A stretch of DNA of 64,000 bases from Prorocentrum cordatum (Eukaryota). Where the stretch lies: assembly GCA_963575745.1 (NCBI GenBank), contig CAUYUJ010000137.1:124001-188000 (forward strand). Reading direction: 5' to 3'. Below, piece after piece: positions 15,770-48,720 of the stretch. Below the pieces are notes generated by a model. That model made no database searches, had not been told where the DNA came from, and was given only the letters and a program-made list of their open reading frames with translations. A program made the translations under genes and the position numbers. Position 1 is the first letter of the stretch. Each line of letters starts with the position of its first letter.

Positions 15770-16795
15770 TCACATGTTTCGTGGCCCCACAGGGAGCCCC
15801 ACCTAAGGCCGCAGTGGCGGTGTTCGCATGCGCCCCCCCACCCAGGACAGCGTTTCGTGGCCCCATAGGGAGCTCCACCGAAGGCCCCAATGGTGGTGTT
15901 CGCATGCGTCTCCCCCACCCAAGACGGCGTTTCGCGGCCCCACATAAAGCTCCACCAACGGCCCCACTGGGGGTGTTCGCATGCGTCTCCCCCACCAAGG
16001 ACAGCGTTTCGTGGCCCCATAGGAAGCTCCACCGAAGGCCCCACTGGGGGTGCTCGCATGCGTCTCCCCCGCCCGGGACAACGTTTCGTGGCCCCATGGG
16101 GAACTCCACCGAAGGCCCCACTGGGGGTGTTCGCATGCGTCTCCCCCGCCCATGACAGCGCTTCGTGGCCCCATTGTAAGCTTCACTGAAGGCCCCAGTA
16201 GGGGTGTTCGCATGCGTCTCCCCCACCCAGGACAGCGCGTCGTGGCCCCAGGGAGCTCCACCGAAAGCCAGAATCGGGGTGTTCGCATGCGTCTTTTCGT
16301 GGCCCGACCTCCATACCACGGGACGCATGCGTCTCCCCACCCAGGACAGCGCTTTTAGAGGGACCGAAGGCTGTTCGCATGCGTCTCCCCACCCAGGACA
16401 GCGCTTCGGGGCCCCATAGGGAGCTCCACCGAAGGCTTCAATCGGGGTGTAAGCATGCGTCTCCCCCACCCAGGACAGCGCTTCGCGGCCCCAGGGAGCT
16501 CCACCGAAGGCTTCAATCGGGGTGTTCGCGCGCGTCTCCCCCACCCAGGACGGCGTTTCGCGGCCCCATCGGAAGCTCCACCGAAGGCCCCACTGGGGGT
16601 GTTCGCATGCGTCCCCCCCGCACCCAGGACAGCGTTTCGTGGCCCCATAGGAAGCTCCACCGAAGGCCAGAATCGGTGCGTTTGCATGCGTCTCCCCCAC
16701 CCAGGACAATATTTCGTGGCCCCATCGGGAGCTCCACCGACGGCCTCAATCGAGGTGTTCGCACGCGTCTCCCCCACGCAGGACAGCGTTCCCAC
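15770..16795. repeat. 77-bp tandem array (~13 units); dispersed relatives at 18130-18310 and 62200-62270
   Basis: CGTTTCGTGGCCCCATAGGGAGCTCCACCGAAGGCCCC..GTTCGCATGCGTCTCCCCCACCCAGGACAG recurs at 15851, 15928, 16005, 16082 and onward. Confidence 0.95.
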
Positions 16796-16989
16796 GATCC
16801 ACGCGAGGGGCGTGCCGATATGGGAGAGAGCGTGATCCACCGCCGCTTTACTGTGGAAAATTGCCAACCGTTTCCTCCGGAACCCGGGGGTTTCCCCCCC
16901 CCCCCCCCCTCTCCGAAAATCCCCCCCCCTTGCTGGACCCCCCCCCCCCCCTTTCCCCTCGGCAACCCCCCCCCCTCCCCTAACCCTCC

Positions 16990-17937
16990 CCCCCCCCTCT
17001 CCCCTCGAAAACCGGGGGGGGGGTCACTACCGGTTCGATGCCGTCCCCCTCCCCCCCCCTCTCGGATCCGGAAAACCCCTCGAAAACCGGAGGGGGGTCA
17101 CTACCGGTTCGACCCCCTCCCCACGCACCGCCAGCAAACGACTCCCGTCCCTACCACCGCTCGCATCACATCCCCCACTGTTGTTCCCAGCACCACTGTC
17201 CTCACCACCACTGTCCCCACTGGTTCCACCACCGTCCCTATTGTCCCCACCAGTGCCCCCACCACTGTCGCACTGTCCCCACTGTTCCCACACTGTTCCC
17301 ACCACGGTTCCACTCTCCCCACTGTCTCCACGGACCCAACCACTGCCTATCCCCACTGTCCCCACTGTCCCACTGACTCCTCCGCTGTCCCACTGAGCTG
17401 TCCCACTGTTCCCACCACTGTCCCCACTGTCCCCACCACTGTCCCCACTGTACCTCTGTCCCATTGTCCCACCGCCGTCCTCGCCACCGCCTTCACCACT
17501 GTCCCCACCACCATTGTACCCTCCACTGTCCCACTGTTTCCACCTCATTCCCACTGTCCCCACACCACTGTCCCCACCACCACCGTCCCACCACTGTCCA
17601 CTGTCCCCCCTGTTCCCACCATTGTCCCCACCACTGTCCCCACCACTACCGTCCCCACCACTGTCACTGTCCCACTGTCCCCACTGTCCCGCTGTCCCCT
17701 CACCACTGTCCCCACCAACACCGTTCCCACCACTGTCCGCACCCCCACTCGGTTTTCGAAGGGGGGGGGGTTCGAACCGGTAGTGACCCCCCCCCCTTTT
17801 CATGATGAACTGGGGGAGGGGGGGGGGCTGGGGGGGGGGAGGGGTTCGAACCGGTAGTGACCCCCCCCGGTTTTCCGGGAGGGGGGGGGGGGGGGGAGGG
17901 GTTCGAACCGGTAGTGACCCCCCCCCGGTTTTCCGCC
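16990..17937. mobile_element. Foldback-like element: inverted subterminal units around a (CCACTGTCC)n minisatellite
   Basis: GAAAACCGG(G)nTCACTACCGGTTCGA occurs twice on the left (17007, 17082) and three times inverted on the right (17772-17934). The 9-bp repeat core spans 17170-17740. Confidence 0.7.
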
Positions 17938-25000: not shown

Positions 25001-27706
25001 TGAATGTGCGAGCGTTTCATGGATTGACTGTGTGTGAACGTCGGCAATATGATGTCGACGGCGATGATAATGATAACGATGATGACGCAGTCCGTGATGA
25101 TGCTGAAGATGGTGATGACGATGGTGATGGTGATGATGGAAAACGATGCGATTCAAGTTAATTATGGTAATGATGATGTTGATTATGATGGTTATGATGT
25201 TCTTGTGGATGATGATGGTGATGATGATGGTGTTGATGACCATGGCGCGGGTGTGAAAACTGGATACGAATGGCGGATGAGGCGATATTTCGTGCGGGAC
25301 TACCCCGAGAAAGCGGACATCCCACTTAGGATGTGGGGGTGGGAGAATCCCCCATCTTCGGAGATTTGGCTCCGACCCTGACACATGACCTTGCAAAACA
25401 AACTATCGCAGAAAATCATGACCGCAGCCTTGGGCCCCTTTCATTGGGCGCCATTTTCTGGCCAGATCGATACGTGAGGGCCAATGCGCCCGTCGAGAAA
25501 AAAACGCATGGGCACAAATTGCCAAGCAGACCCCCCCCCCTCCCCCAAGGAGCCGCAACGGTTCTAAAATGGGAAAATATCCAACACGTTGCTTTCATCA
25601 AGCTGGACCGCGGGAAATCATCGTGGAACGCCCGCGCGCCATCGATTGGGTGACGCCGCCTGCCCCTGCCACTGAATCGCGCCAGGCGCGCCGCGGAGGC
25701 GCGACCAGCGCGGCCCCCGAGCCGGGCCGCCACGTGACCGCTATGGAACTCATTGCCGCGCTGACGTCCCGCCACGCGGTCATTGGGCAGAACGCGCGCG
25801 CGAATGTGGACGAGCGCAGCCGTCGAAACGCAGACGGAATCGGCGCGCGCGCAGCCGTCGAACCGCTAGGTGCTGCCCCGGCCGCGCGGCCGATAGCATG
25901 CGCTGGAGAAACACCTCCCAAGCTGATATATGATGAAACGCGCTGGCGCGGGACCGACGGACCACAAGAAAGGGCCACTTTGGAGACCCCGCACGAAGCA
26001 AAAGCGCTCGAGCGCGAACGCCGCGCGGGGAATTGGCGGGACGCCGGAGGCGGTTGGATCTCGTGCCCGCGCAAGTCGAACAAACTCCGCTTCAAGGGAG
26101 CGGCGCTCGCGGGGCCCACCGTGGGCGCGGGGGTCGCTGGCGCAGACTCTGCCGCAACCGCGTCGAAGCCCCGGCGCTCTCCCTTGGGGGCCGCGGCGCG
26201 CGGCTGCGCTGGTGGCGGAGAAGAGGGGCCTGACGGCGAACGTCGGCTTCGAAGCCTCAACGGCCGGCCGCGGGGGCGGCGGCGCAATCGCGAACCTGCC
26301 GCGCGAGTCAGCGCAGCCCGCCGCGAGGACATCCTCTCCAACCGAGCGGGAGTCCCCGGGGGGAACCCCTCGCCCCCTCCCCACCCCCCCGCCGCCTCCC
26401 CGCGGCCCCCTGCTCCTCTTCCCCGTTTGGCTACGATTTTGAAAATTGTTGGTGGCCCCGATTTGCCTATTCGTTTGTCCTCCCTTCCGCGGATGCGCAT
26501 TTTTTTGACCGCGATTTTCTCACGATAAAATCAATGAGGAAAAATCGTGTTCAAAATCGTGGGTGGTTTCGTGGGGCCCTGCAAGGGGGCGCGGAATCGT
26601 GGGCGCAGAATCGCGGGTTTGCCCGGTGCGCCGGCATGCCAAGCTGGCGTGCCCGCGCAACATCAGCGACGGTAAAGAAAAAAGAAATGGAAGGAGCGGC
26701 AGCAGCAGCAGGGGGCCAGCAGCAGCACTGGGAACAGGAAAGACTGGGAACCAGCAGCAGGAGAGGAGGAGAGACAGAGTCGTCGAAATTGGCCCGCCGG
26801 GTCGTGGCGTGCCCCATAGCACGCTGGACATGCTTCTCGGAGGAAACTCGCCGGCCCAACGGGCCAAAGGCGTGCAAAGATCTCCGGCGACTGCCTCGCA
26901 ATAGTTCTACTTCGCGTGCGCGGGGCGACCCAGGGGGGCACGCGGACGCAAAGTGCCCCGGCCAGGTCGGGCCACAGATGGTTGCTTCTGGGCGCGGCTT
27001 TCAGGCGCCCCAAATCGATCCAAAAGGGCCCCAAGAGGCGCCCGAGACGGTCCAAGAGGGCTCCGAGTCGTCGAACGATCGGTCCGCGACACCCACGATG
27101 GCTTCCAGACGGCCCACGACGCGCACAACACCCCCGAAGAGGCCACCGCGAGCTGAAACGATACCTGAAAACGAGATTCTGAACTTCAAAGGAAAACGGA
27201 AGCAGAGAGACGAGGCGGAAACAGACCGGGGGCGACACCGCCCGCATGACGCGTCGAACCGAGATTGCGCGCAAGCCGCGCGCCGAATGCCCAACATCGG
27301 AGCGGGTCGGCGACGAAACAACTCCTGAACAAAGAAAAAAACTCGGCAATCCAATATTTTTGCATTCGGAAAAAAACACGAAATCGTTACATCAATCCGC
27401 GTGGGGTACGCAGCTTCATGAAAAAAAACCAGGAGGCTTCCTGGGGAGCTTCTTGGGGCCTCCTGGCATCCCGGAACCGCCTCGGGGCGTCCTGTGGCTT
27501 GGGCCTCCCGGGGGGGAGAAGGAGGAGGAGGAGGAGGAGGAGGAGGAGGAGGAGGAGGAGGAGGACGAGGAGGAGGAGGAGGAGGAGGAGGAGGAGGAGG
27601 GCGAGGAGGATGATGATGATGATGATGATGATGACAAGCCCTGAGGTCAGGGTTCGGCCGCCTGGCCGGCCTCCTCAGACGAGGAGCACGTACTGGCCGA
27701 CGGGCC

Positions 27707-30700
27707 TCACGACCTCTGCGCCAGCGCGACGAGCTGCTTGAAAGCCGCAGCCCTGGCTACCGCGCCGTCCCTCGACTCCTCGGAGTCGGCACTGGCCCGC
27801 TCCGCCCGCGGCGACGCAGCAGCAGTGGCAGCTTCGACGCCGTGCTCGAGGCCGCCGAGGGAGGCGCGGCGGCCGCCGTCCAGCGCGGCCACGCGGCCGC
27901 CGAGGCCGCCACCTTGCCCACGTCCTTGCCCTCGTACGCTCGGTGCGGCCCGAGGATCCCAGGGCCCTGGCCAACCGCCGAGGGCGGGGACTCTTTCCCA
28001 GGCAGGCCCGTGGCGCAGAGGGGGGTACGTGGCACACGGCCTGCACACCGCCCCCGCTGCTGCTGCCTCGGCGCCGCGCCCGCTGCCCTCGAGCTCGGCC
28101 GAGGCAATGGCGCCGTCGCGCTCGTCCAGGCTGGGTGCGACTGCGCCAGGGGCCTGCTGGCCACGCGCGCCAGCCGCCGCCAGGAGGCGGGCGACGCGCT
28201 CGGCGAAACCCAGCGGGCCCAGTGCCGTCGCGGCGCGGCCGTCCCGCGCGCCCGACACGCCACCGGCCGCGGCCGAGCCGCTCGCCACCCCCGCAGCAGC
28301 CTCCTCGGCGTCGTGCGCGGTGTCGTCCAGCGCGCCCACGGGGTCGACGTCCAGCGCGTCCGAGCCGTCGGCGCCCGCCGAAAGGCAGTCCGCCGCCCCC
28401 GCAGCTGCAGCCTCCGCGTCGTGCTCCGCGTCGCCCAGCGCGCCCTTGGTATCGACGCCCAGCGCGTCCGAGCCGTCGACGACCGCCAGCGATCTGCCCG
28501 CCTCTCCAGCATCAGCCGCCTCAGCGCCGAAGCCCAGCGCGCCCAGGAGGCCGTCGTCCAGCGTGCCCGAGCTGCCGAGGCCCATCGCTAGGCCGAGCGC
28601 CTCCGCAGCAGCTGCAGCCTCGGCGTCGTGCTCGTCGTCGCCCAGCGCGCCCTCGACCGCGACGTCCAGCGCGGCTGAGCCGTCGAAGGAGTCCTTCTCC
28701 AGGCCGAGCGCCTCCGAGGCTGCTATCTCCTGAGTGTCGTGCTCGTCGTCGCCCAGCGCGCCCACGCACTGTGCGTCCAGCGCGCCCGAGCCGTCGAAAG
28801 CCGCCGCCGAGCCGCGCATCGCCCCCGCGCCAGCAGCCCCAGCAGCGGCATACTCCGCGACGTGCGCCACGCTGTCCGCCGCGGCCGAGGAGATTACGCA
28901 CTGCGTGGTCTTGCGGCGCGGTCCCGTGCTGGCGGCGGCACTGGGCTTCCCAGCAGCAGCAGCTCCTTGGGCTCCCCTGAGTCGTGCCCCAGCACGCCTA
29001 TCCCTTCGAGCTCCGCGAACTTCCGCCTGCTGGAAATCTCCTCTGGCCGTCGCGTGTCCGAACATGGTCTTCCTCCCTTCCTGCTCGTCACACCAGGACT
29101 GTGCCCTTTCACGCACTCGTTGGTGAAGTGCAGCCATTCTGCTCTCAAAACCTGCCTCAGGCACTGCCCCGTCCGTGCCACTGAGGATGTCAACCTTCGT
29201 GAAAGTGGTGTGAACCTCGCTTGTCGCCTCCAGCCGTCGAAGAGGGGTGGCGCTGTCGATGAACTTCTTCAGCTTCTTGAAGGGACCGAAGCCACGCCTC
29301 AGGTTGTGGAGGACCTCGAGGCCCTTGGTAGTGGCGACTGCGAAGGGCTGTCGCAACTTGGCCTTGCGCCGCTGCAGCGCCCAAGCCCCACACTTGACAC
29401 AGATGAACACTGGCCTGTAGGTGTCCTGCCCGTCGCTCTCCAAGGTGCCCTTCTGGTTGACCGCGACCAGCTTGTGGCCATTGGGGTTGCGCCGATGGTC
29501 CAGCAGGAAAGCGGGCGTCCCAGGGCGCCCCGTGAGGGGGAGCGGTTGCCCAGGCATGTGCAACTGTAAGCAGGTGATGCATTGCGCGCCCAGCTCGCCA
29601 TCTTGCCATTGGTGCCATGTTGCCTTCCTTGTGCTCGCTGCTCGCCGCCAGGTCGGTGCCCTCCTGGTCCACCTGATTTGGTCGTCCTTGTCGAAGATGG
29701 GCATGACGTGGGCGATAAGCTTCGCTAACTGGGAAATTCTGTCTACGCCCTTCTGCATCTCCTCGACTACGTGCAGCTCGGGGGCGGGGTGGATCGCCGC
29801 TGCCTCCTTGGCCCTGAGGTCCGCTACAATGTTCGCGTCCGTTATCCTCCTCTGGCTGTCGGAGAGCGCTGCGTACTCGTCCCCAGAGCGGTGCGCTTTG
29901 ACGTGGGCGTACTGCTGCGCGTGCGCGAAGCCGTTGAGCGACTGCGCGAAGTGGGCGATGCACGCATAGGGGGTCCTGGCCTTCAGCTGCAGCTCTTTCT
30001 GCTTGTTGCCCAGATGGATGACGCCCTTGAAGTCGGCGTGGACGGTGCATGGTCGGTCTGCAACCTGAGACACGAAAGCTGCCGCTAGATGCTCTCCGAC
30101 GGCAGACTCTTGGGGTAAGGATGCGGGTACTGCTCCGTGCATGGTCGCCAGCGGCATGTCTGAGCGGGGGTCCAGCAGGGCGATGCTCCATCCTGCTCGC
30201 TGGAATTCCTTGATGGGCGGCTTGGTGCACGATCCGTCAGTAGCGACCTCCATACTAGCATCGTCATCCCTGAGGAAACAGGCTGCCAACTGCTCAGGCT
30301 CCTGACATACTTCATCTGGTACTGGGACTCCTTGGCCGTCAAGTATGACGCTGGTAGTGCCCAAACTCATTGTCGGAACATCAGCACACGCATATCCAAA
30401 CATACCCTCAATAAAACCAGGCTCATCTGCATGCATGCGTAGCCCGTCGAGGAAATGTTGTGGGACCTCTGCATCAGCTCGAGCTTGCTGAACTTCAGGT
30501 CTTGTGCAATCAAGAAGTCGGTGCACCAGCGAGTCGGGAGCTCCACAGGGACACCTACCATCTGTGTTGTATCCACGCTGTTGGGCTCTCATCCTTGTCC
30601 AGACTCCACTGCACGCTGCATTCATGATGCAGAACTTCTGGTGCGCCGTGTACCGTTTGCTGCGCATGGAGACCAGGGGGGCTAGGATGTCGAAAGTGGC

Positions 30701-33700
30701 ACGCTTGCCCTCACCAAGGCCAATCTTGCCCGCTAGGTCTCGCTCATGCTGACATTGAACGCCTTGCTGCAACATCTGGAGCATTAAGCTTGGGGTGAGC
30801 TGCTCCACAAATACCTGATCCCCTCGATGGTTACGCCACCTCAGTGCCGAGGTTGCTGTCCAGCCTGCCCGCGCCAGCGAGAGGGCAGCTCGTTGGAGAG
30901 GCCCACGGGTAGCTCCCCACGAGCTGCATACCCCAGGTACTTCCACCGCTCTTCGCCACCACGTTGTAAGTAGTGCCAGAGGTACTGGTGCCTGAGTAGG
31001 TTGCGATACTGCCATCCAGACCATCCGCGACCACTGCAGCACTGGCGCCATCGCAATCGCCACTGTGGGGTCGCCCAGTAGCACCACCTTGGCCGAGGCC
31101 GAGACACCCCCATGACAGGGTTTGCGGAACTTGTCGAAGTCTGTTCGCAGCTTGTGGAGCTCCCCGTCGGTGAGGCCCGTGATCTCCACGCCGAAGGTGG
31201 CCGCAGGTCGAGCTCCAGCTCGGAATATCTTGGCCGTGCGCTGCGTCTGCTGTCCTGGTAGTCGATGTCTGAATCGCCCCAGCTTGCGCAGCCTCTGCTT
31301 GTAGATCTTGTGGCGTGCCTGCTGCTTGGCGCGGAGGAGCTTCCCTCGCCTCCTCCGTGCTCCCGCGAAGTCAGTGCCCAGGTATGTCGCCCGACTGCGA
31401 TTCATGTCAGCAGGGAGTTGCAGCTGCCGCACCACTTCCTTCCCAATATCATTTGAGCTGGCCACCACAGCAAGCTTATCATTAATACGGGCGCCGAGCT
31501 TCTTAGCCACATTGAAAAAGGCATTGCCCGCCTCGACCGCCTGCAGGATGACACTCTCCTTGGTGGCTCCATTGATACCGAGGGAGGTGTCGTCAATGTA
31601 GGACGCGAACCTTACCAGCGGGTGGAGCGTGACGTAGATATCGTACTGCTCGATGGCGTGCGCCTTTATGACCACGTCTGCGTAGCCATCGCCTGCTGGG
31701 AGGCCGAACTTTGCATGCCGTGGCTGCGCGCCGTGATGCTGGTGGAGACGTATCAATCGTGGTCCTCTCCACTGGTTGTACACAATTTTTACCATCGCCA
31801 AGGGCATTCCAAGCCTCAGCAGCTTGTCCCTTGCTTCGTCCAGGGGAATCAGCTCGTAGTACTTGCTGTAGTCAGCAATGATGGTGACCGTGTGCCGCCC
31901 TGCCTCTGCATTCTGCTCCGCATCCGCTGCCAGGATCCAGGCACTGTCGACCGCGCTCCTGTTCTTGGCAGCCGCCCAATAGGGCCTTCGCAGGGCCTCT
32001 TGCAGAGGTAGGAGGGCAGGTTTACGTAGTCGTTGCCAGACTCTGTAGGCCATGGAGTATAGGATGATCAAAAGGTGGCCTCCAGCGGCCTTGGGCAGCA
32101 TCGGCATCACCATCCACGTCAGCTGGGCAGGGAAGAGGCCCAGCGCCTCGCAGGCCAGCATGATGTCGCACAGGCCCTCCAACGCGTCATCGCTGAGGTG
32201 CTCTAAGTGCGTGGGGTGGAGGCCGTCCAGGCTGCTGGAGGTCTTGATGCTGAAGGTACGGGAGGCGCGCCGAAGTTCCTCTGGTGATGGCCGTGCGAGG
32301 GTAGACCTATCAGGAATCCACGCCTGGGGAGGCTCCTTGACCGCCTTCCACAGCGCTGCGTGCGTATCCTCCATATCCTTGACTACAAAGTGCGGGTGCC
32401 CTGTGATGCCGTTCTCCGAGTCGTTAACCGTGGTGGGGGCCTGAATTGCTTGCACACGAGTGACCTTGTGGAGCTTCCCCGCTCCGCCCGCACAGGCCCC
32501 GTCGCACCATTCTCTCCAGCGCCTCGAAGATTCCTTGTTCGCTAGCTGCATGGCAAAGTTAACATCCTCGTCGATCTCCTCCGAGAAGGTCATGATGTCC
32601 TCACTGCTGAAATTCCTCTGCACAATCTGCCGAGCATGCCGAACTGATGCGTCGAGCCTCGCGCTTAGGTTCTGCCCACAGTAGTCTACACTGAGGAAGC
32701 CTTGCAGCTCGTTGTCGAGAAACTGTCGGCCCTCGGGTGTCCTGGCGTTCGCCTTTGCGGTGATGAGGCCCGCCAGGCAGTCCTGCAGCCACTTCCATCC
32801 ATCCGCGACCGCCTGTACCTCATCCTCCGTGAGGACCTGGTGCTCACGCTCGACCCACTTGGCTTGGAGCGGACGCGCGTAGGCGCTGGCTCGCGTCTCC
32901 GTACCAGTGAGGTGCCCGAGCCTCGAGGCTGCCCTGGTCGCCCATCTGCCCCAAGCCTTCGAGAGGAAACGCCAGGCGACTGCAGCAGGCGCCTCCTTGG
33001 CCATGCTCAGCGCCTGCTCAGCGAAGCTGCGCTCCAGGGACCAGCTGCTCTCCTCGAGGAAAGGCCCGTGCACAATCTGCGCTGGTATCTTCGCACCGCC
33101 TACGTAGGTGAGGTACCTGAGCTTGGTGCCCTCCGCTGTCAGTTGAAGCTGAACTGGTCGATGCGGCTTTACCGACCAGGTCAAGTCTGCGTTGCATGCA
33201 GCTAGCATGCGCATGGCTCCCGTGGTCAGCCCGAAGTAGTCGATGGTTGACAACGACGCCGCTGTCCTGCAGGTCGCGTGCCTCGGGGTGACCATCTCCA
33301 GCTGCGCGTGCACGGGGAAGCCGGAGTTCTTGACCACCTGCACGTCCATGTTCCAGTCACCGCCGATGATGCCAGGGTGCGCCTGGCCCGCAAGCGCGAG
33401 CCCCACCGTCATGAGTATACTTGCGTTGCGGCTGCTCATGCCCTCCCCTGTGTGGAGGTACACGTTGACGACGTTGAGCGGCGGCCAGTTCGGCAGCTCC
33501 ACGACGACGTGTTGAGCCCTGCCTCGGACGAGCTCGGTGCCGTGCGCAATGGTCTCGTTGACGCTGCCTGCACGTCTGGGCGGGGCCTCGCCAGGGTAAG
33601 TGGGCCCGCGCAGCCCGATCCCCTCCCTGGCGAAGACTGCCAGGCCTGCGGAGGGGAGGTACCCTCGTGAGGGCAGCCCTGGCACGATGAGGCTTTGCCA

Positions 33701-34087
33701 GCCGCGCGCCGTCGCCCAAGAAGAGAGGCTCTCGCAGTCATCGATGCCGTATCCTATCTCCTGAGCCATGATGACCATTGCTGTTGACCTTCTCAGCCGC
33801 TTCTGGAGGGTTAGCTTTCCCTGGTTGGCGTTGAAGGTCTCGAAGGTGTGCGTGATGGTGACCGCTGCTGGTACGTGTAGCTGCTTGGCGCCCGCGCTGG
33901 CATCCAGTAGCCCGCTGACCAGGGGCGGGTTACCCAGGCATCGTGCCTGTGCCCAGGGAGCCTCCAGTAGTCCTGCGGTGCTTGCTGTGCTGGACCTGCG
34001 TGAAGGCGTCGTCCAGCTTCTCCTTGGTCCAGTCCGTAGGCTGCTGTCCGCTGCTGAGGAGCTGCTGCCAGAGGGCGCCGACGTCAT
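27707..34087 (-). CDS. LINE ORF2 polyprotein: APE endonuclease, reverse transcriptase, CCHC finger, RNase H, Cys/His fingers, acidic repeat extension (start codon uncertain)
   Basis: APE motifs TFNAN, MAQE, AGLAVF, NVYL, GGDWN, TIDY, PHRPV (~33850-33140). RT motifs SLDG, MLPK, DYSKYYE, GLPAG, YIDD (31589-31600), YLG (~32300-31370). CPC..H..C finger (~30554-30504). RNase H ATDGS / GEH / HAD / HVKAH / NIVADLRAK (~30250-29795). CITC and CVKC fingers. No stop codon in frame. Confidence 0.93.
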   Translation of the reverse strand: MTSAPSGSSSSAADSSLRTGPRRSWTTPSRRSSTASTAGLLEAPWAQARCLGNPPLVSGLLDASAGAKQLHVPAAVTITHTFETFNANQGKLTLQKRLRRSTAMVIMAQEIGYGIDDCESLSSWATARGWQSLIVPGLPSRGYLPSAGLAVFAREGIGLRGPTYPGEAPPRRAGSVNETIAHGTELVRGRAQHVVVELPNWPPLNVVNVYLHTGEGMSSRNASILMTVGLALAGQAHPGIIGGDWNMDVQVVKNSGFPVHAQLEMVTPRHATCRTAASLSTIDYFGLTTGAMRMLAACNADLTWSVKPHRPVQLQLTAEGTKLRYLTYVGGAKIPAQIVHGPFLEESSWSLERSFAEQALSMAKEAPAAVAWRFLSKAWGRWATRAASRLGHLTGTETRASAYARPLQAKWVEREHQVLTEDEVQAVADGWKWLQDCLAGLITAKANARTPEGRQFLDNELQGFLSVDYCGQNLSARLDASVRHARQIVQRNFSSEDIMTFSEEIDEDVNFAMQLANKESSRRWREWCDGACAGGAGKLHKVTRVQAIQAPTTVNDSENGITGHPHFVVKDMEDTHAALWKAVKEPPQAWIPDRSTLARPSPEELRRASRTFSIKTSSSLDGLHPTHLEHLSDDALEGLCDIMLACEALGLFPAQLTWMVMPMLPKAAGGHLLIILYSMAYRVWQRLRKPALLPLQEALRRPYWAAAKNRSAVDSAWILAADAEQNAEAGRHTVTIIADYSKYYELIPLDEARDKLLRLGMPLAMVKIVYNQWRGPRLIRLHQHHGAQPRHAKFGLPAGDGYADVVIKAHAIEQYDIYVTLHPLVRFASYIDDTSLGINGATKESVILQAVEAGNAFFNVAKKLGARINDKLAVVASSNDIGKEVVRQLQLPADMNRSRATYLGTDFAGARRRRGKLLRAKQQARHKIYKQRLRKLGRFRHRLPGQQTQRTAKIFRAGARPAATFGVEITGLTDGELHKLRTDFDKFRKPCHGGVSASAKVVLLGDPTVAIAMAPVLQWSRMVWMAVSQPTQAPVPLALLTTWWRRAVEVPGVCSSWGATRGPLQRAALSLARAGWTATSALRWRNHRGDQVFVEQLTPSLMLQMLQQGVQCQHERDLAGKIGLGEGKRATFDILAPLVSMRSKRYTAHQKFCIMNAACSGVWTRMRAQQRGYNTDGRCPCGAPDSLVHRLLDCTRPEVQQARADAEVPQHFLDGLRMHADEPGFIEGMFGYACADVPTMSLGTTSVILDGQGVPVPDEVCQEPEQLAACFLRDDDASMEVATDGSCTKPPIKEFQRAGWSIALLDPRSDMPLATMHGAVPASLPQESAVGEHLAAAFVSQVADRPCTVHADFKGVIHLGNKQKELQLKARTPYACIAHFAQSLNGFAHAQQYAHVKAHRSGDEYAALSDSQRRITDANIVADLRAKEAAAIHPAPELHVVEEMQKGVDRISQLAKLIAHVMPIFDKDDQIRWTRRAPTWRRAASTRKATWHQWQDGELGAQCITCLQLHMPGQPLPLTGRPGTPAFLLDHRRNPNGHKLVAVNQKGTLESDGQDTYRPVFICVKCGAWALQRRKAKLRQPFAVATTKGLEVLHNLRRGFGPFKKLKKFIDSATPLRRLEATSEVHTTFTKVDILSGTDGAVPEAGFESRMAALHQRVRERAQSWCDEQEGRKTMFGHATARGDFQQAEVRGARRDRRAGARLRGAQGAAAAGKPSAAASTGPRRKTTQCVISSAAADSVAHVAEYAAAGAAGAGAMRGSAAAFDGSGALDAQCVGALGDDEHDTQEIAASEALGLEKDSFDGSAALDVAVEGALGDDEHDAEAAAAAEALGLAMGLGSSGTLDDGLLGALGFGAEAADAGEAGRSLAVVDGSDALGVDTKGALGDAEHDAEAAAAGAADCLSAGADGSDALDVDPVGALDDTAHDAEEAAAGVASGSAAAGGVSGARDGRAATALGPLGFAERVARLLAAAGARGQQAPGAVAPSLDERDGAIASAELEGSGRGAEAAAAGAVCRPCATYPPLRHGPAWERVPALGGWPGPWDPRAAPSVRGQGRGQGGGLGGRVAALDGGRRASLGGLEHGVEAATAAASPRAERASADSEESRDGAVARAAAFKQLVALAQRS
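28290..28798 (-). repeat. Five in-frame coding repeats of 33-37 aa (DGSxALDVxxxGALGDDEHDAEAAAA) in the ORF2 C-terminal extension
   Basis: Visible in the translation. Length differences between units preserve the frame, and third positions are GC-rich. Confidence 0.8.
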
Positions 34088-35195
34088 CCTTGGCCAGCTC
34101 CACCCAGGCGGCTCCGCGCTTATCGCCTCCTCGAGGCTGTGCGTCGCCGTCGGCGTCTCCGTCGTCCATGTCATCGTCATCCCGAGCTGGCGGTCCGTCT
34201 GCTGCGCCTGCGCCACCGCCCTCAGCATGAGGAGCATGAACACCAGGTTCCTCAGCCATGACCGTAGCCAGCTTCTCCGCCGCCTGCTTGCGGAGGGCCG
34301 CCTGGATCTTGCCGAAGTGGGGGCTCGCCTTGAACTGCTCGAGGGCCTCCTTCGCGCCATCGTCGTCGAGCTGCTCGGCGAGGTCGAAGCCAACCAGGTC
34401 TTCCTCCTTGATGACTGGGTGGGGCTTCTCACCACGTGCAGCCTGCATGGTTTGCTCGTGCTTCGCATTCTCCTTGCGCAGGACCTCCACCTCAGCCTGT
34501 TTAGCCGCAGTGGCCTCCTGCTTATCCTGGATCTTGCGCTGGGTAGCCTCCAGCTGCGCCTCCAGGCCCTGCAGGTCGCTTGTGAAGCGGTCCAGCTGCT
34601 GCATGCACCGCGCGAGCTTCTGGGACGAGGCCTTGTAAGCAGCGCCTGGGGGGCGCAATTCACGCGCCTGCTGCCGAAGGACGTCGAGGGCCCGCTGGTG
34701 CAGGAGGTGAATTGGGCCGCCCTCTGCCTCCACGATCTTGCATTCCTTGAGGCTCTTCTCGTGGAAGTTGATCTTCGCCTGGAGCTCCGTGCGCTGCTGG
34801 ATGTTGCCCTGCACGTGCTGCGCCTGCTCCTTGCAACCGGCGCCTGCTCCTGATGACGCTGGTGCCGTAGGCGATGGGGGCCCCTTGGTGCTGCCCGCGT
34901 GCTGGGAGATGCACTGCTGCACCAGCTCGCGGATCTTCTTCTCCGTGAGGCCGCTCTCCTTGGACCACGGGGCAGGCTTCCGCACGAGCCCTGTGCCTCC
35001 TGCTCTCTGCGAGGGCTTCTTGTTCCGCGCCTCCTGGTCCGCCTTCTTGGCAGCGTCGATGACCTTCTGAGAAGCCTGCCGCCCGCAGGAGCACACGATG
35101 CGGCAGGCCCAGTTGTTGTCCTTCCCACACTGGCATCCCCAGACAGGCTCTCGGGGGCCACGCAGCACTCTCGCCTGCGGCGGTGCAGGCGCCAT
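33930..35195 (-). CDS. LINE ORF1 protein (~421 aa): N-terminal RanBP2-like C4 zinc finger, central coiled coil, acidic C-terminal linker
   Basis: ATG at 35195 (MAPAPPQ...). Motif WGCQCGKDNNWACRIVCSCG. Heptad-like stretch LDRFTSDLQGLEAQLEATQRKIQDKQEATAAKQAEVEVLRKENAK. TAA at 33930-33932. Lies directly upstream of the pol ORF. Confidence 0.85.
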   Translation of the reverse strand: MAPAPPQARVLRGPREPVWGCQCGKDNNWACRIVCSCGRQASQKVIDAAKKADQEARNKKPSQRAGGTGLVRKPAPWSKESGLTEKKIRELVQQCISQHAGSTKGPPSPTAPASSGAGAGCKEQAQHVQGNIQQRTELQAKINFHEKSLKECKIVEAEGGPIHLLHQRALDVLRQQARELRPPGAAYKASSQKLARCMQQLDRFTSDLQGLEAQLEATQRKIQDKQEATAAKQAEVEVLRKENAKHEQTMQAARGEKPHPVIKEEDLVGFDLAEQLDDDGAKEALEQFKASPHFGKIQAALRKQAAEKLATVMAEEPGVHAPHAEGGGAGAADGPPARDDDDMDDGDADGDAQPRGGDKRGAAWVELAKDDVGALWQQLLSSGQQPTDWTKEKLDDAFTQVQHSKHRRTTGGSLGTGTMPG

Positions 35196-36178
35196 CGCCC
35201 CTGCAGAGGAGCCGTGATGGGCGTCCAACCGCTGGGCCGCGCCGCGCAGCCTGGCTACCAGCGCAGGGGTCGTGCGCCCCGACCAGGCGTGGAGGAGGAA
35301 CCTGTCCTCCCTGCGTTGTAGTCGCGCTCGATGATGGGCGGCAGCCTCCCGCGGAGCCGCCGTCGCGAGCGCTGGTCTCGGCGCGCGCCAGGAGCCTATC
35401 CCCTCGCCTGCCCCGCAGGCGCCCAAGGGGGAGGCAGCTCCTCGCGAGCCGAAAACTGGAGGGCGAGGAGGAGGAGGAGGAGGAGGAGGAGGAGGAGGAC
35501 AAGGAGGAGGAGGAGGAGGAGGAGGAGGAGGAGGAGGAGGAGGAGGAGGAGAAGGAGGAGGAGCAGGATGCCCCCCCCCCCTTGGCCCGTCCGGGCCCGC
35601 CCCCGCAGCTGCTGCGCCAGCGCCGCGCCAGTGGCCGGTTGGGCGCCCAGGTGCCCGGCCGCCGCGGCGGGCAGGGCCGTCGCAGGCGCTCTGCCTCGCG
35701 TGCGGGGGTCTCCTCCTCCTCCTCGCCCTCCTCCTCCTCCTCCTCCTCCTCCTCCCTCCTCGCCCCTCCTCCTCTCCTCCTCCTCCTCCTCCTCCTCCTC
35801 CTCCTCCTCCTCGCCCTCCGACTCCTCCTCCTCCTCGCCCTTCTCCTCCTTCTCCTCGCCCTCCTCCTCCTCCTCCACCTTCTCCGCCTCCTCTTGCTGG
35901 CTCTTGCGAATCGAGGGGGGACGATGAGGGGGGTATGCGTAAATGAATATGGATTCATATGTAGGTATATGTGTGTGTACATCGTAGAAATACAAATATC
36001 TATATATGTAAATGAAGACATGCCGATTCTTACCCCTGCGTGGATATCAGGAAAACTGATGGACATCAATTCATGTAAATCTCAATCCGCACATTTCCCC
36101 ACCTGACGTGCTCGGCATGCGGTACTGCATGGAGGGCCAGCGGGCCCTTCTCAAACATACTGTTGCAACTCTAGTATC

Positions 36179-43405: not shown

Positions 43406-43649
43406 CCCCATTTCCCATTATTCGCGATAACGCCCGTGACTGGCCCAGCCTCCCCCGCCCTGGTGACGTCGCGATTTGCGCTGGCGCTGTCTGGGACAGA
43501 GCCATTCCCCGGCATTCCCAAACAGCGCCGACGCGAATCGCAACGTGACCAGCCCCCGGCCCCCACGTTGGTCACGCAGGTATCGCCGTGGGGCATAAGA
43601 AATTATCTCCATCTGAAAGGCCCAGATGCCCAGCCCGAGCAAACAGTTG

Positions 43650-44413
43650 AAAAGAAAAGAGGAGGAAGAGGAGAAGGAGGAGGAGGAGGAAACGGAGGAT
43701 GAGGGGAGGAAAAAAGGCAGAGGAGGATGGAAGAGGAGGAGGAGGAGGAGGAGGAGGAGGAGGAGGAGGAAAGAGGATGAGGAGGAGGAGGAGGAGGTAG
43801 CGAGGAGGAAGAGTTCGTTCGTTTTCTCAAACGCAGAAACACAGAGGTTCCATACGTCACCCGTCCATGATGGCGCGCCGCCCGCTGGCGAGCACACGCT
43901 CACTTGGGGAGAGGAGGCAGCAAGGCAACGAGGGAACAGAAAAGGAGGAGGAGGAGGAGGAGGAGGAGGAGGAGGAGGGGGAGCAAATGGAGGAGGAGGC
44001 AGGCGGGGTAGGAGGAGGAGGAGGAGGAGGGGGAAAAGGAGATGGTGAAGGAGGAAGAGGCGGAGGGGGAGGAGGAGGGCGGGGGAGGAAATGGAGGATG
44101 ATGGAGGATGACGGAGATGACGGGGATGCTTAATTACGAGGGCGATGATTAAGCTGATGGTGGCGGTGGTAATGATGATGCTGATGTTACTGATGATGGC
44201 GATTATGCTGATGATGATGGTGATGGTGTTGGTGTTGATGCTCATGCTGCTGGTGCCGGCGCTGGTGGTTGTAAAGATGATGAAGAGGATGATGACGAGG
44301 ATGTGACTATGATAACGATTACGATTCGGTGTATGACGATGATGATGCGGATGATGATGGTGCCGATGCTGCTGATGATGGCGATGGTGATGCCGGCGGT
44401 GATGATGATACGT

Positions 44414-44467
<54 letters not shown>

Positions 44468-44690
44468 ATTATGATTATGATGATGATGATGATGGTGCTG
44501 CTGATGGTGTTGATTGTGATGATGATGGTCATGATTTGAATGATGATGAGGAGGAGGACGACGATGAGAATGAGGATGAATAGGAGGAAGAAAAAAAGGA
44601 AGAAGGAGGAGGGCGAAGAAGGAGGAGGAAGGAGGAAGACAGGGAAGCAGGTGGAGGAGGAGGAAGAGGAGGGCGGAAGAGGGAAGAGGC
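43650..44690. repeat. Compound (GAG)n/(GAT)n microsatellite region
   Basis: Direct inspection. Confidence 0.95.
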
Positions 44691-45039
44691 GGCAATCAGG
44701 AGTTACAGTTAAACAAGGTTTACTTTGGACTTAACCCTCCGCTGGGCGAGCATCAAGGCATTCGCCCTGCGAAAGGGGTTAGCTCTAGGTTAAACCTTTC
44801 TTTTCTCGTGGGCGCCGAGCGTCGCGGGGATCTACCCAGAGGAGGGCCACCTCCGTTCAAACCCGTTTCGCGGAAGCCGAGCGTCGCAGGGGTCCACCCT
44901 GAGGAGGGCTACCTCCAGATTAAGCCCTGTTCGCGGACGCCCCCGTGGCCCCCGCGCGCAATTCGCCACCTGGCAGGGCACCGGTAAATCTAGAGTTGAC
45001 CCTCCTCGTTTGGACACCCTCTAAGAGGCGGAGGCGGAG

Positions 45040-45460: not shown

Positions 45461-47437
45461 AAAGCAATACAGAGAGAATGATAAAGAAAACGATATCTGT
45501 ATATACATAGATGATAACAACAATAACAAAACAAACAACACATGAAAGGACAAGGGGATGGCGAGATGGAGAGCGAGGGGTGCAGAGTGACCGAACCTGT
45601 CGCCCGGAAGCTCCTCGGCGGTCCAAAGACTTCGCGGCCTTGAGCGTCGCGGCCTTGATTACCAATCCGCGGCAATGTCGGTTTCTGCTGGAGATCGGTT
45701 TGGTGTTGTTTGCGGCTCAGAGGTGGTTCTCTCGGGTTCGTCAAAGGGGCCATCAGGTCGATTCGGGAACATCTTGGGGACGCCTTGAGATCATATGCAA
45801 ACGTCGCATTACATTTTGAGGTCGCTGGAGGGTCGCGTTGGGGTTATACTGGGGTCGCGTTAGGTCCTGATATCGCCCTGGGATCGTCATGGGCTTGATG
45901 CTGTTGTCCCGGGGTGGCCTTAGGGCCAGCCGCAAGGTGATAGGGTCCTTTCGCAGTTGACGATGTCATTCGGGCCGTGTCGGGGTCACCCTGTGATCAT
46001 CACGGGTGCGAAAAGCCGTCTTAGTGTCGTCCTAGTGGTCATCAGGGGTCGTGGGATCACCGCACTGTCATAACGCCTTTCCGAACAATCACCAGTGTCA
46101 TCGTCATCGTTATCAAGACCATCACCATCAGCATCCTCATCATCCTCACCATCATCATATGTCCTCTCCACCTCCTCCATTGGACATCGTTACCGTGGCG
46201 TCTTCGGGCCTCCTTGGCAGGAGGTACCAATCGACTAGTTCAGTGACAAAGGAGAGAGGGCATTAATCATTTTGAATCAGTCGTGAGCATGTTGGGAATC
46301 TCTTGTGGACATCTAGAACACCTGTCCAGAGACTCTCAAGGCCTCTTAGCGGCCTTGCCAACCGACTTAGAAGGCTTATGGACGCTGCGAACCCATATAG
46401 ATCAAACTCATAATCGTTTGGGCCAGAGTTGACCTCTCGGTGGCAACTGCGTAAAAAATGTTACTCCAGAGTCAGCACTCCGACCGGAAATACAATTAAA
46501 CCAATTTACTCCAAACTTAACCCTCCGACAGGAGATCCCGCTAAAAGTGCAAACTCTGGAGTTAACCCCTTTGGGAAGGGAGCGTAAACTGCATGTGTGC
46601 TGTTGTTGTTGAAGAGAGCGCCTGCAGACCCCAGAGAAGGAACCGACGAAACAAGAAAGCCCGCAGCGTGTGAGAAGCACTCGCCCTAGATCAAAGCTAC
46701 GAGCGACCTGAGCCAGAAAGCCTACAGGGCAAGAGAAACACGCACACTGAACCAGCAAGCCTGCAGAACGAACAAACACCTCGAAAACCAGACGGGCCAG
46801 CAGCGCTGGAAAAGTAAGCCTCCAGAACCAGAAACATGACAACACTAAGGCAGAAGGGATTCATAGCAAGAGAACGCTCGTATTTGAAAAAAAGGAGCCG
46901 GCGTTACCAGAGAGCCAGCAGCCCCAAACAAAACAACCTTCGGAGCAAAAAAGCCTGAAGAGCGAGAAGCGGTGGCTCAATAACTGGGTGGGTCAATAAT
47001 CAGACAGCAGGACGAGAGGAGGGCGGCATAACTAAACTTACAAGGACCCACCCCCCTGAGCAGCCTTGACGAAACGTCGCCCATAACGTGAAAAAAACTG
47101 TGGAACTGTATTGGAAACCGAATCGATTGCAGAGATGCCAGCGCAACTTCAGAAAGTAACCCCCGATAACAACAAAAACCCAAGGACTAATGAAAGGAGC
47201 GACTGCACCTCCGTAAATGGCCAGCCCCACGGCGAGAATGTTTCGAGCACGGGGCCCAGGAAATGAAAAGAGCATGCAATAGAGAAGAGGCGACATGGTC
47301 GCCAGAGGGGCGCCTCAGATGTAGAGAGGTTTAATACAAAGTAAACCCTTTCCAATGGTGAAGCACTGAAGGTACAAGTTCAACAAGATTTAATCCAGAT
47401 TAAACCTTTTACAGAACTCGTGATTACACACTTTTTC

Positions 47438-48556
47438 GGAGGAGGAGGAGGAGGAGGAGGAGGAGGAGGAGGACTAGGAGGAGGAGGAAGGCGGAGGATG
47501 AGGAGGTGGAGGCTGAGGAGGAGGCTGAGGAGGAAGCTGAGGAGGAGGGCGGAGGACGGCCGAGGCTGAGGCGGAGGAGTGAGCTGAGGACGAGGAGGTG
47601 GCGGATGCTGAGAAGGAGGGCGACAGAAGGCAGAGGCTGAGGAGGAGGCGAGGAGGAGGCTGAGGAGGAGGAGGAGGACGAGGAGGAGGAGGAGGCTGAG
47701 GAGGAGGAGGCGGAGGAGGAGGAGGAGGAGGAGGAGTGCGGAGAAGGAGGCGGGGGCTGAGGAAGACGGCGGCGGAGAGCAGAGGCTGATGAGGAGGCTG
47801 AGGGGCGGCGCGGGAGCGCTGCGCGGCCGAGAAGTAGGAGGAGAAGGAGGCTGAGGAGGAGGAGGACGAGGAGGTCGAGGAGAAGGAGGCTGAGGAGGAC
47901 GGCAGCCGAGGACAAAGGCTGAGAAGGAGGCGGAGGAGGAGGAGGAAGAAGAAGGCGGAGGAGGAGGAGGAGAAGGAGACTGAGGAGGACGGCGGCGGAG
48001 GGCAGAGGCTGAGGAGGAGCTTAGGAGGAGGAGGAAGAAGAAGGCGGAGGAGGATAGGATGGCAGAGGAGGAGGAGGAGGCTGAGGAGGACGGCGGCGGA
48101 GGGCAGAGGCTGAGGAGGAGGCTGATGATGATGATGAGCAGGAGGAGGAGGAGGCGGAGGAGGCCGAGGAGGCCGAGGAGGACGGCGGCGGAGGGCGAAG
48201 GCGCAAAGGCTGAGGAGGAGGCTGAGGGGCGGCGCGGGATCGCCTGCGCGGCCGCCCGCCGCGTTGCCACTGGAGGCCTGCAGCAGCTCGGGCACCAGGC
48301 CCTCCTGGGCGCCGCTGGGCCCCGGTTCGACGCCGACGCGCGCGGGCCCCGCGGCAGCGGCCAGCGCCGCCGCCCGATGCCGACGCTGACGCCAACGCCG
48401 CCGCCACCGCCACCGACGTCGACGACAAAATAGCCGACGCCGCCGCCGCCGCCGCCGACGCCGCCGCCGACGCCCGACGCCGACGCCGACGACGACGACG
48501 ACGCCGCCGACGCCGACGCCGACGCCGACATCGACGCCTTCGCCGACGCCGACCCT

Positions 48557-48605
<49 letters not shown>

Positions 48606-48624
48606 ACGACGACGACGCCGACGC

Positions 48625-48661
<37 letters not shown>

Positions 48662-48720
48662 GGCAGCGACGACGACGACGACGGGCGACGGAGGCGGCGT
48701 CGGCGGCGACAACGGCGGCG
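47438..48720. repeat. Degenerate (GAG)n followed by (GCCGAC)n/(GAC)n microsatellites
   Basis: Direct inspection. Confidence 0.9.

Follow-up and report, generated by a model that had tools for sequence, protein, structure and literature searches.

The window analysed here is a stretch of 64,000 nucleotides from the dinoflagellate Prorocentrum cordatum (assembly GCA_963575745.1, contig CAUYUJ010000137.1, positions 124,001 to 188,000 of the forward strand). Its minus strand carries a very divergent long interspersed nuclear element (LINE) with two open reading frames (ORFs). LINE ORF2 proteins normally end soon after the last cysteine-rich or RNase H segment. Past the conserved helix FESRMAALHQRVRERAQS, the long frame of this element runs on for 452 codons, from an ATG at 29065 to a TGA at 27709-27707, and this continuation is hereafter called the tail. 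Judged from sequence comparison, the tail is tentatively read, with somewhat less than even confidence, as a translated, disordered module constrained in composition, which in the family would more likely be a separate downstream ORF and in this copy is fused to ORF2. The initial annotation of this DNA had reported a frame open for about 1.36 kb past the helix; both that frame and the other landmarks it named, an ACC directly before the ATG (29065-29063) and the TGG of the motif 'AQSW' (29095-29093), were confirmed. The features of the element are as follows, in its 5' to 3' direction.

33930-35195, minus strand: ORF1, 421 amino acids (aa), Met at 35195 and stop at 33930, in a different frame from the long ORF
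29150-34087, minus strand: ORF2 core, with an endonuclease-like N end, a reverse transcriptase (RT), an RNase-H-like part and two CxxC pairs
29096-29149, minus strand: conserved helix FESRMAALHQRVRERAQS, the last segment common to the related LINE families
29066-29116, minus strand: junction VRERAQSWCDEQEGRKT, 17 codons including the TGG of 'AQSW' (29095-29093), open here and the suspected site of the ORF2 stop in the family
28886-29065, minus strand: basic linker, 60 codons from the ACC-ATG, net charge +9, third-position GC content (GC3) only 0.60
28262-28795, minus strand: repeat array with units of 111, 111, 96, 108 and 108 nt, delineated by Tandem Repeats Finder, unit alignment and self-BLAST
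27710-28261, minus strand: distal non-repeat part, with a helix GFAERVARLLAAAGARG (28210-28160) and a C-terminal helix SADSEESRDGAVARAAAFKQLVALAQRS (27793-27710)
27707-27709, minus strand: TGA closing the long frame in this copy
27515-27706, minus strand: 3' end, a short untranslated segment (27706-27635) followed by the microsatellite (ATC)8(CTC)n (27634-27515)

Anatomy of the tail and of its element

The tail has a GC content of 76% and a GC3 of 0.80, in agreement with the GC3-rich codons noted initially; the window has about 60% GC, and the P. cordatum genome 59.7% according to PMC10666404. Codons 61-270 of the tail (210 aa), which contain the repeat array, are strongly acidic, with a net charge of -39, a pI of 4.05, 30% Ala and 16% Gly. 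The initial description of an acidic module thus held for this part and not for the first 60 aa, which are basic (+9), nor for the last 182 aa (codons 271-452), which are near neutral (+4). Tandem Repeats Finder detected a period of 108 at 28283-28686 (3.8 copies, 69% matches) and a period of 111 at 28532-28798 (2.4 copies, 77% matches). At the protein level, four clear units of 36-37 aa (DGSxALD...GALGDDEHDAE) were recognised, with one degenerate 32-aa unit among them and a sixth that is very degenerate, so that of the five 33-37-aa repeats described earlier four stand as clear units. Every gap in the nucleotide alignment of the units measured 3, 9 or 18 nt, which bears out the claim that unit-length changes preserve the frame, with unit limits that were placed by hand on codon boundaries.

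The assignment of the element to the LINEs rests on its RT, its ORF1, its copy number and its microsatellite tail. The minus-strand frame is stop-free from 35254 to 27707 (2515 codons) and forms the long ORF of the element. ORF1 opens with WGCQCGK...CRIVCSCG, a CxxC...CxxC motif near the N end, and has a long helical middle that resembles a coiled coil; it begins with MAPAPP, as do the gene models P0004, P0012 and P0013 (91-92% identity), and no Pfam family was found for it above threshold. In the ORF2 core, endonuclease-like sequence starts at about 33862, the YIDD motif lies at 31600, the RNase-H-like part at about 30256 and the CxxC pairs at 29584 and 29407. A possible ORF2 start ATG at 34087 overlaps ORF1; between the ORF1 stop and the endonuclease motifs no ORF2 ATG was seen, the nearest in-frame ATG being that at 34087. 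The RT was recognised as Pfam RVT_1 in residues 1054-1260 of P0001 (E 4.3e-07; 30.3 bits, with the cut-off at 29.6).

The labels endonuclease and RNase H come from motif reading and from the precomputed Pfam domains of distant relatives. In the window copy, Pfam at E<=0.05 gave no endonuclease match, and it did not recognise RNase H either. P0003 showed a weak Exo_endo_phos match (E 0.032, under the cut-off), and the distant relatives P0006 and P0008 carry PF03372 in their precomputed annotation. A sequence search of the ORF2 core against the PDB returned no match. The core is very basic, with a net charge of +39. The element resembles known LINE ORF2 systems in its order of ORF1 then ORF2, its RVT_1 domain, its many diverged copies, its microsatellite 3' tail and its CxxC pairs after the RT, and it differs from a typical LINE in that RVT_1 is barely at threshold, the PDB gives no match and Pfam detects neither an endonuclease nor an RNase H domain in this copy. 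Unlike other LINE ORF2s, it has 452 extra low-complexity codons shared by none of the related LINEs.

The module had been placed inside a target-site duplication, and this was not confirmed: the only direct repeat found at both ends of the element is a (GGA)n microsatellite, and no ordinary target-site duplication was found. Both ends adjoin plus-strand (GGA)n, at 27515-27610 and at 35465-35568 (also 35710-35893), and on the element's own strand a (CTC)n run stands directly upstream of its 5' untranslated region (UTR, 35464-35196). Such runs at both ends could reflect microsatellite-targeted insertion or the remnant of a head-to-tail arrangement. No second copy of the LINE was found inside the 64-kb window.

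Sister copies of the module

A search with the whole ORF2 returned seven proteins (P0002-P0008), and the closest proteins were P. cordatum gene models 91-92% identical to the window copy. With the tail alone as query, a single match was obtained among 1.84 billion representative proteins, the 122-aa sister fragment P0009. A word-indexed collection returned two matches, a search of the last 626 aa among shorter proteins returned three, and a cluster look-up added P0012. All five sister proteins that reach the region (P0002, P0010, P0012, P0011 and P0009) contain the tail in the same frame, at 70-83% identity. P0002, P0010 and P0012 are P. cordatum gene models, P0011 comes from a 1034-nt contig and P0009 from EukProt. 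P0009 matches 29065-28700 with 82% identity and keeps the frame from the Met of 29065; among its first 60 residues, a comparison by eye shows 9 that differ from the window. EukProt entries of this kind are presumably transcriptome-derived.

P0009 and a second EukProt entry, P0014, are filed under 'Pyramimonas sp. CCMP1952' but match P. cordatum LINE copies, and P0014 (about 29570-29215) is by eye identical to the P. cordatum model P0012 across its 119 aa. By these sequence matches, that EukProt data set probably contains Prorocentrum sequence.

At the DNA level, scans for sister copies found no relative in metagenome contigs, prokaryote genome contigs or viral contigs. The sequencing run X1 contained half of the sampled words of 27400-30400, and ten other listed runs, mostly metagenomes, contained small shares. 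Contigs from four runs were aligned at 80% likeness to 27640-33900, namely 300 from X1, 53 from X2, 21 from X3 and 4 from X5 (378 together). Those of X1 covered all 30 bins and fell into several identity classes (63 at >=99%, 72 at 95-99%, 88 at 90-95% and 77 below 90%). These classes, together with several distinct P. cordatum gene models, reveal the many diverged copies that are characteristic of a LINE. Details of the contigs given below refer to the 40 of 778 variants and the 28 of 384 pieces that were listed.

Constraint on the frame and on the residues

The chief alternative to translation, a real possibility although doubtful on balance, holds that the tail is an untranslated, GC-rich (76%) 3' UTR with a 108-bp minisatellite. 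ORF2 would then end directly past the helix, this copy would have lost its stop, for example at the TGG 29095-29093, the periodicity resembling that of a coding region would go back to triplet repeats or to coding sequence once captured, and the frame would run on by chance through DNA poor in stops. Tandem repeats and minisatellites occur in LINE 3' UTRs, and the tail resembles them in its place between the ORF2 end and the 3' tail, its 108/111-bp tandem array, its GC richness and its fast evolution. It differs from them in having a unit that is a multiple of three, a frame open in the phase of ORF2, no indels outside multiples of three, a codon-like periodicity that extends beyond the repeats and, in this copy, no stop after ORF2.

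Length changes speak against an untranslated end. The indels listed for the tail form three compensated sets with a net change of zero (-1/+1 at 28092/28095, -2/+1/+1 at 28359-28366 and -1/+1 at 28946/28949), and for the ORF2 core one +9 and one -1 were listed. When the tail was aligned as protein, the window and P0012 showed no gap column in 387, the window and P0002 showed one, and the length variants of P0010 and P0011 are whole codons. The free length variation, with lengths not divisible by three among the rest, that is expected of a 3' UTR minisatellite was thus not seen, the contigs being net-zero and the proteins varying by whole codons.

Stop codons and periodicity point in the same direction. 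Frame 0 is the sole tail frame without a stop, and shuffles that kept the mononucleotide, dinucleotide or codon-position content left it stop-free in 0.2%, 0.25% and 1.1% of trials, respectively. No new frame-0 stop arose on three lineages, against 3.1-3.8 expected given the observed replacements (P 0.02-0.06); on the two sister branches only, 1.7-2.2 were expected and none arose (P 0.11-0.17). Measured in 600-nt windows, the period-3 G signal reached 21-47 in three of the four tail windows (5.5 in the last, which reaches the microsatellite) against 0.6-24 in ORF1 and ORF2, making it the strongest of the whole element; it lies in the phase of ORF2, and the flanks show no periodicity. G at codon position 1 amounts to 0.72 in the repeats and 0.56 in the distal non-repeat part, and GC3 to 0.80-0.86 across both (distal 0.80), an exaggerated form of the codon style of the element (0.72-0.80 in ORF1 and ORF2). 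The extension of this periodicity, in ORF2's phase, to the 182 non-repeat codons argues against an untranslated end.

Replacements were also unevenly distributed over codon positions. Single-step replacements at positions 1 and 2 numbered 10:29, 13:26 and 6:15 on the tail branches of the window, P0012 and P0002 (29:70 in sum), and 16:20 in the core, and the excess at position 2 was present in both the repeat (20:44) and the distal part (9:26). When base-specific rates and polarising were taken into account, 41:58 was expected against the observed 29:70, leaving a residual effect of position (p=0.014) that speaks against an untranslated sequence. G sites of the tail changed at 0.056 at position 1 and at 0.134 at position 2 (p=0.024).

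Other evidence weighs against a translated, constrained module, and it begins with openness itself. The other five tail frames hold only 4, 3, 2, 1 and 2 stops per 452 codons, and the antisense frame at 27742-28980 is open for 412 codons; because these frames are nearly stop-free, openness alone is weak evidence, and such stop-poor sequence is also in keeping with a UTR. The agreement among five of five sister proteins comes from a biased sample, since gene predictors retain open frames. The C end is not conserved either, P0011 leaving the frame after LVAQ and reading on. As for the position-2 excess, much of it is due to A sites, whose rate of change is 0.26-0.30 per site whether at position 1 or 2 and which lie mostly at position 2.

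The module is missing from related LINE families. The helix FESRMAALHQRVRERAQS aligns with FEVRMAALHERIKHKE in P0003, YESRLAALQERVRQRE in P0005 and YEERMTALMERIRAKE in P0017. P0003 (49% identity) ends 55 aa past it, P0005 and P0016 (46%) end about 24-35 aa past it, and P0017 (44%) continues with about 170 aa or more of unrelated, non-repetitive sequence. The ends at 24-55 aa are where ORF2 would stop if the tail were untranslated, and the alignments show that the region past the helix is variable across this LINE group. Since all five sisters carry the module and the nearest other LINE families lack it, it is family-wide and lineage-specific, which upholds the initial proposal that the segment belongs to the element and is peculiar to its lineage.

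Neither a fold nor a homologue outside the family was recognised, which suits a UTR. The representative, word-indexed and shorter-protein searches found no homologue of the tail outside the LINE family, Pfam at E<=0.1 returned no family, and the ESM Atlas recognition of the tail was 883, within the range of shuffled sequences and with no usable match. AlphaFold2, supplied with the last 626 aa and an alignment of five rows, returned a mean predicted local distance difference test (pLDDT) score of 35.4. The helix FESRMAALHQRVRERAQS was modelled as such at about 72, and the tail lay mostly below 35 except for GFAERVARLLAAAGARG (about 51) and the C-terminal helix SADSEESRDGAVARAAAFKQLVALAQRS (66-88). 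The two amphipathic segments pointed out earlier therefore exist, and they are the only tail parts modelled as helices with a pLDDT of about 50 or more. The suggested functions as a nucleic-acid mimic, a metal-binding segment or an anti-silencing factor gained no support from the Pfam, protein, ESM and AlphaFold2 searches.

The residues of the tail appear to have evolved in a nearly neutral manner. Amino-acid divergence in the tail (387 columns) was 2.3-3.2 times that of the adjacent ORF2 core (334-372 columns from the RNase-H-like part to the helix) in all six pairs among the window, P0002, P0010 and P0012. The divergent contigs listed showed differences to the window of 11.7-14.6% (tail) and 6.8-12.4% (core). 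Random mutation at 12.7% would bring tail identity to 0.755, a value bracketed by the observed 0.73-0.89, and at 9.4% an unconstrained core would fall to 0.806 against the observed 0.90-0.95; the comparison is a rough one, drawn from the listed pieces and from contigs that cannot be paired with the proteins. It indicates that the core is constrained, whereas the tail looks close to unconstrained, as expected of a UTR. Tail replacements were no more conservative than simulated ones (BLOSUM62 z -1.5, -1.2 and -2.3), whereas core replacements tended to be conservative (z +0.7, +2.3 and +1.6). D and E often changed to G, A or V, and D-N and E-K were not among the 14 commonest replacements in any of the three comparisons, a pattern with which selection on charge is hard to reconcile.

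The repeat units tell the same story. U1, U2, U4 and U5 differ at 49, 76 and 45 sites in codon positions 1, 2 and 3, with no excess at synonymous sites, so the differences are not concentrated at third codon positions, and at the sequence level the pattern is not that of a protein under purifying selection. Tested at the level of proteins and repeat units, the amino-acid sequence of the tail showed no sign of purifying selection. A 3' UTR minisatellite had been predicted to show frequent frameshifts or stops together with nearly unconstrained amino-acid evolution; the second appears to hold, and the first was not found.

Listed variants fell on codon positions 1, 2 and 3 in the numbers 3/4/5 for 12 in the tail and 6/5/17 for 28 in the core, a difference estimated not to be significant. 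At 8 of the 12 tail variants the window has A or T where all other contigs have G or C, and these sites have the appearance of decay peculiar to this copy. Among the changes inferred for the window branch, A to G is the most frequent (11 cases, Asp to Gly in most), in the opposite direction to these best-supported private variants, so that two opposing biases appear in one copy. The predominance of A-to-G changes resembles a GC-enriching neutral process and in that respect fits an untranslated end. CpG hypermutation was rejected as an explanation of the fast tail, CpG transitions being equally rare at position 2 (2-3 of 68) and at position 1 (2-4 of 111), with a CpG observed/expected ratio of 1.14.

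Prior expectation favours a 3' region that is untranslated, poor in stops and joined to ORF2 by the loss of a stop. Three observations speak for translation in frame 0, namely that frameshifts and stops are lacking, that the periodicity continues in phase past the repeats and that some effect of codon position remains after correction. Against it stand the nearly neutral evolution of the amino acids, the pattern of differences among the units, the lack of conservation at the C end and the relatives without the module.

The junction and the nature of the module

The junction between ORF2 and the tail bears on whether the two are one protein. Three gene models cross it (P0002, P0010 and P0012), and every one of them leaves out a segment after FESR or HQR, as might be expected if ORF2 normally ended there and the tail were a separate ORF or a UTR. 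P0002 and P0010 have a 24-26-aa stretch in a different frame and then return, and P0012 jumps in frame to GAQGAAAAG; the remaining gaps of the three models are not common to them. P0009 begins in frame 0 at the Met of 29065, and the part skipped in common, trimmed by this start, consists of codons 29116-29066. A stop within 29116-29066 in at least two of the three lineages would explain the skipping and would match the ORF2 ends of the relatives. According to PMC10666404, gene prediction in P. cordatum used an assembly with masked repeats and admitted GC and GA splice donors. Masking or permissive splice sites could therefore yield identical junction gaps, which makes the evidence for a stop indirect. 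The start of P0009 is likewise weak evidence, because P0014 from the same data set also begins at an internal ORF2 Met. We regard an interruption of the family consensus at the junction as slightly more probable than its continuity, and the fusion of ORF2 and tail in this copy may be due to a lost stop. The earlier suggestion that the tail is normally separate and that the TGG is a stop in sister copies gains from the 17 codons, TGG included, that three of three models skip, and it remains indirect for the reasons given.

It is improbable that the tail is fused to ORF2 as a genuine C-terminal domain in every active copy, with the junction gaps being masking artefacts or defects of single copies. 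The window copy is indeed continuous, two listed contigs cross the junction without gaps, and P0017 also extends about 170 aa or more past the helix, in unrelated sequence; prediction on a repeat-masked assembly with non-canonical splice sites (PMC10666404) would supply the artefacts. Such artefacts would have to strike the identical 17 codons in three of three models and at least two lineages while other gaps are not shared, P0009 would have to begin by accident at the Met right after the junction, and the other relatives stop near it.

Highly improbable is the reading in which the constrained frame is not that of ORF2 and the module encodes a basic antisense protein.

27742-28980, plus strand: antisense ORF, 412 codons, Arg/Pro-rich, without Met; its third position is sense position 2

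Sense position 2 would be the wobble position of this ORF, a mapping that follows from the coordinates, and it is also the wobble position of an Arg/Gly-rich sense +2 frame. Position 2 of the tail changes 2.4 times as often as position 1, D-G, which is synonymous in the antisense ORF, is the commonest exchange, and the non-synonymous D-N and E-K are missing from the 14 commonest. Base-specific rates explain most of this position effect, however. Visible position-3 changes are scarce in the tail, with two on the whole tree, but the core is equally poor in them (0-1 per comparison), and 5 of the 12 listed window-private tail variants lie at sense position 3. For the same reason, the scarcity of D-E exchanges was rejected as evidence of antisense coding. 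The ORF contains no Met at all and has an atypical codon style, with C at position 1 and a GC3 of 0.58-0.70 against 0.72-0.80 in ORF1 and ORF2, and the sense +2 frame has three stops. No Pfam family was found for either frame, and the ESM recognition of the antisense ORF was 745, with no match. On the same strand, (GAT)n reads as poly-Met in the frame 27250-27741, and a single TGA (27739-27741), which comes from the sense dipeptide F-K that the sister proteins keep, parts that frame from the 412-codon antisense ORF.

A captured host gene as the origin of the tail was rejected, no protein match having been found outside the LINE family.

Elsewhere in the window, other stop-free frames of 425-584 codons occur at 16202-17857 (plus strand), 43418-44695 (minus strand) and 47380-49228 (minus strand), two of which overlap in different frames.

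Returning to the reading of the tail as a translated module constrained in composition, the following pathway may be proposed. In P. cordatum or a close relative, the 1.36-kb stretch would be the 3' module of a very divergent LINE and specific to its family. The ORF2 stop of the family probably lies inside codons 29116-29066, before the module, as the skipping in the sister models suggests; in that case the module would form an ORF of its own downstream, expressed from the ACC-ATG at 29065 via read-through or re-initiation. Its product is predicted to be of low complexity and mostly disordered, with a basic 60-aa linker, a 210-aa acidic core rich in Ala, Gly, Asp and Glu, and a 182-aa end rich in Ala, Gly, Arg and Pro with an amphipathic helix. 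Selection appears to hold the frame and the composition (GNN codons and GC3) and not the residue sequence.

The product might act as a charge-balancing or shielding appendage of the basic ORF2 protein or its ribonucleoprotein, and would hardly be an enzyme or a specific binding domain; this role is suggested by the net charge of -39 of the acidic core beside the +39 of the ORF2 core. Nucleic-acid-binding proteins can bear intrinsically disordered acidic tails, and by functional analogy the module may be compared with them, in that a core of -39 is attached or next to a protein of +39, is predicted to be disordered and seems constrained at the level of composition. Unlike in those tails, the acidic residues here are replaced at many sites. 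A stronger version of this reading, which we consider unlikely, would make the tail a true third coding module, either as an extension or from its own ACC-ATG, kept open and constrained in composition though free in sequence, and encoding an acidic disordered polypeptide needed by the element; in a bolder variant the antisense Arg/Pro-rich ORF would be the constrained one. Such a module would serve, for example, in neutralising the basic RT or in handling the basic, histone-poor chromatin of the dinokaryon.

Extra frames of another kind are known from bdelloids, where, according to PMC5408684, long terminal repeat and Penelope-like elements carry captured ORF3s that are env-like or encode a GDSL esterase or a DEDDy exonuclease. 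The tail resembles these in being an additional lineage-specific frame downstream of the polymerase gene that travels with the element. It differs from them in that the bdelloid ORF3s are recognisable folded enzymes or glycoproteins with homologues, whereas the tail has no homologue, predicted fold or residue conservation; moreover, the module sits in a LINE and not in a long terminal repeat element. Full-text searches of the literature returned no account of this LINE family, nor of any ORF3 in a dinoflagellate LINE, and passages of PMC10449503 and PMC11453091 contained nothing pertinent.

Across eukaryotes, the ORF2 proteins of LINEs are compact and similar to one another, and LINEs seldom have additional coding capacity. 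In P. cordatum, a red-tide dinoflagellate, the tail may represent either a disordered extension of protein or no more than an untranslated end of an unusual kind. In the untranslated case it calls for caution in annotation, since a stop-poor 3' region in the GC-rich genomes of dinoflagellates can be annotated as hundreds of codons, and at least three public P. cordatum gene models already annotate the tail as protein. If, on the other hand, translation takes place and the product is required, a retrotransposon in a host with very unusual chromatin would bear a disordered appendage that arose within the lineage from repeats, and selection would in this case act on frame and composition but not on sequence.

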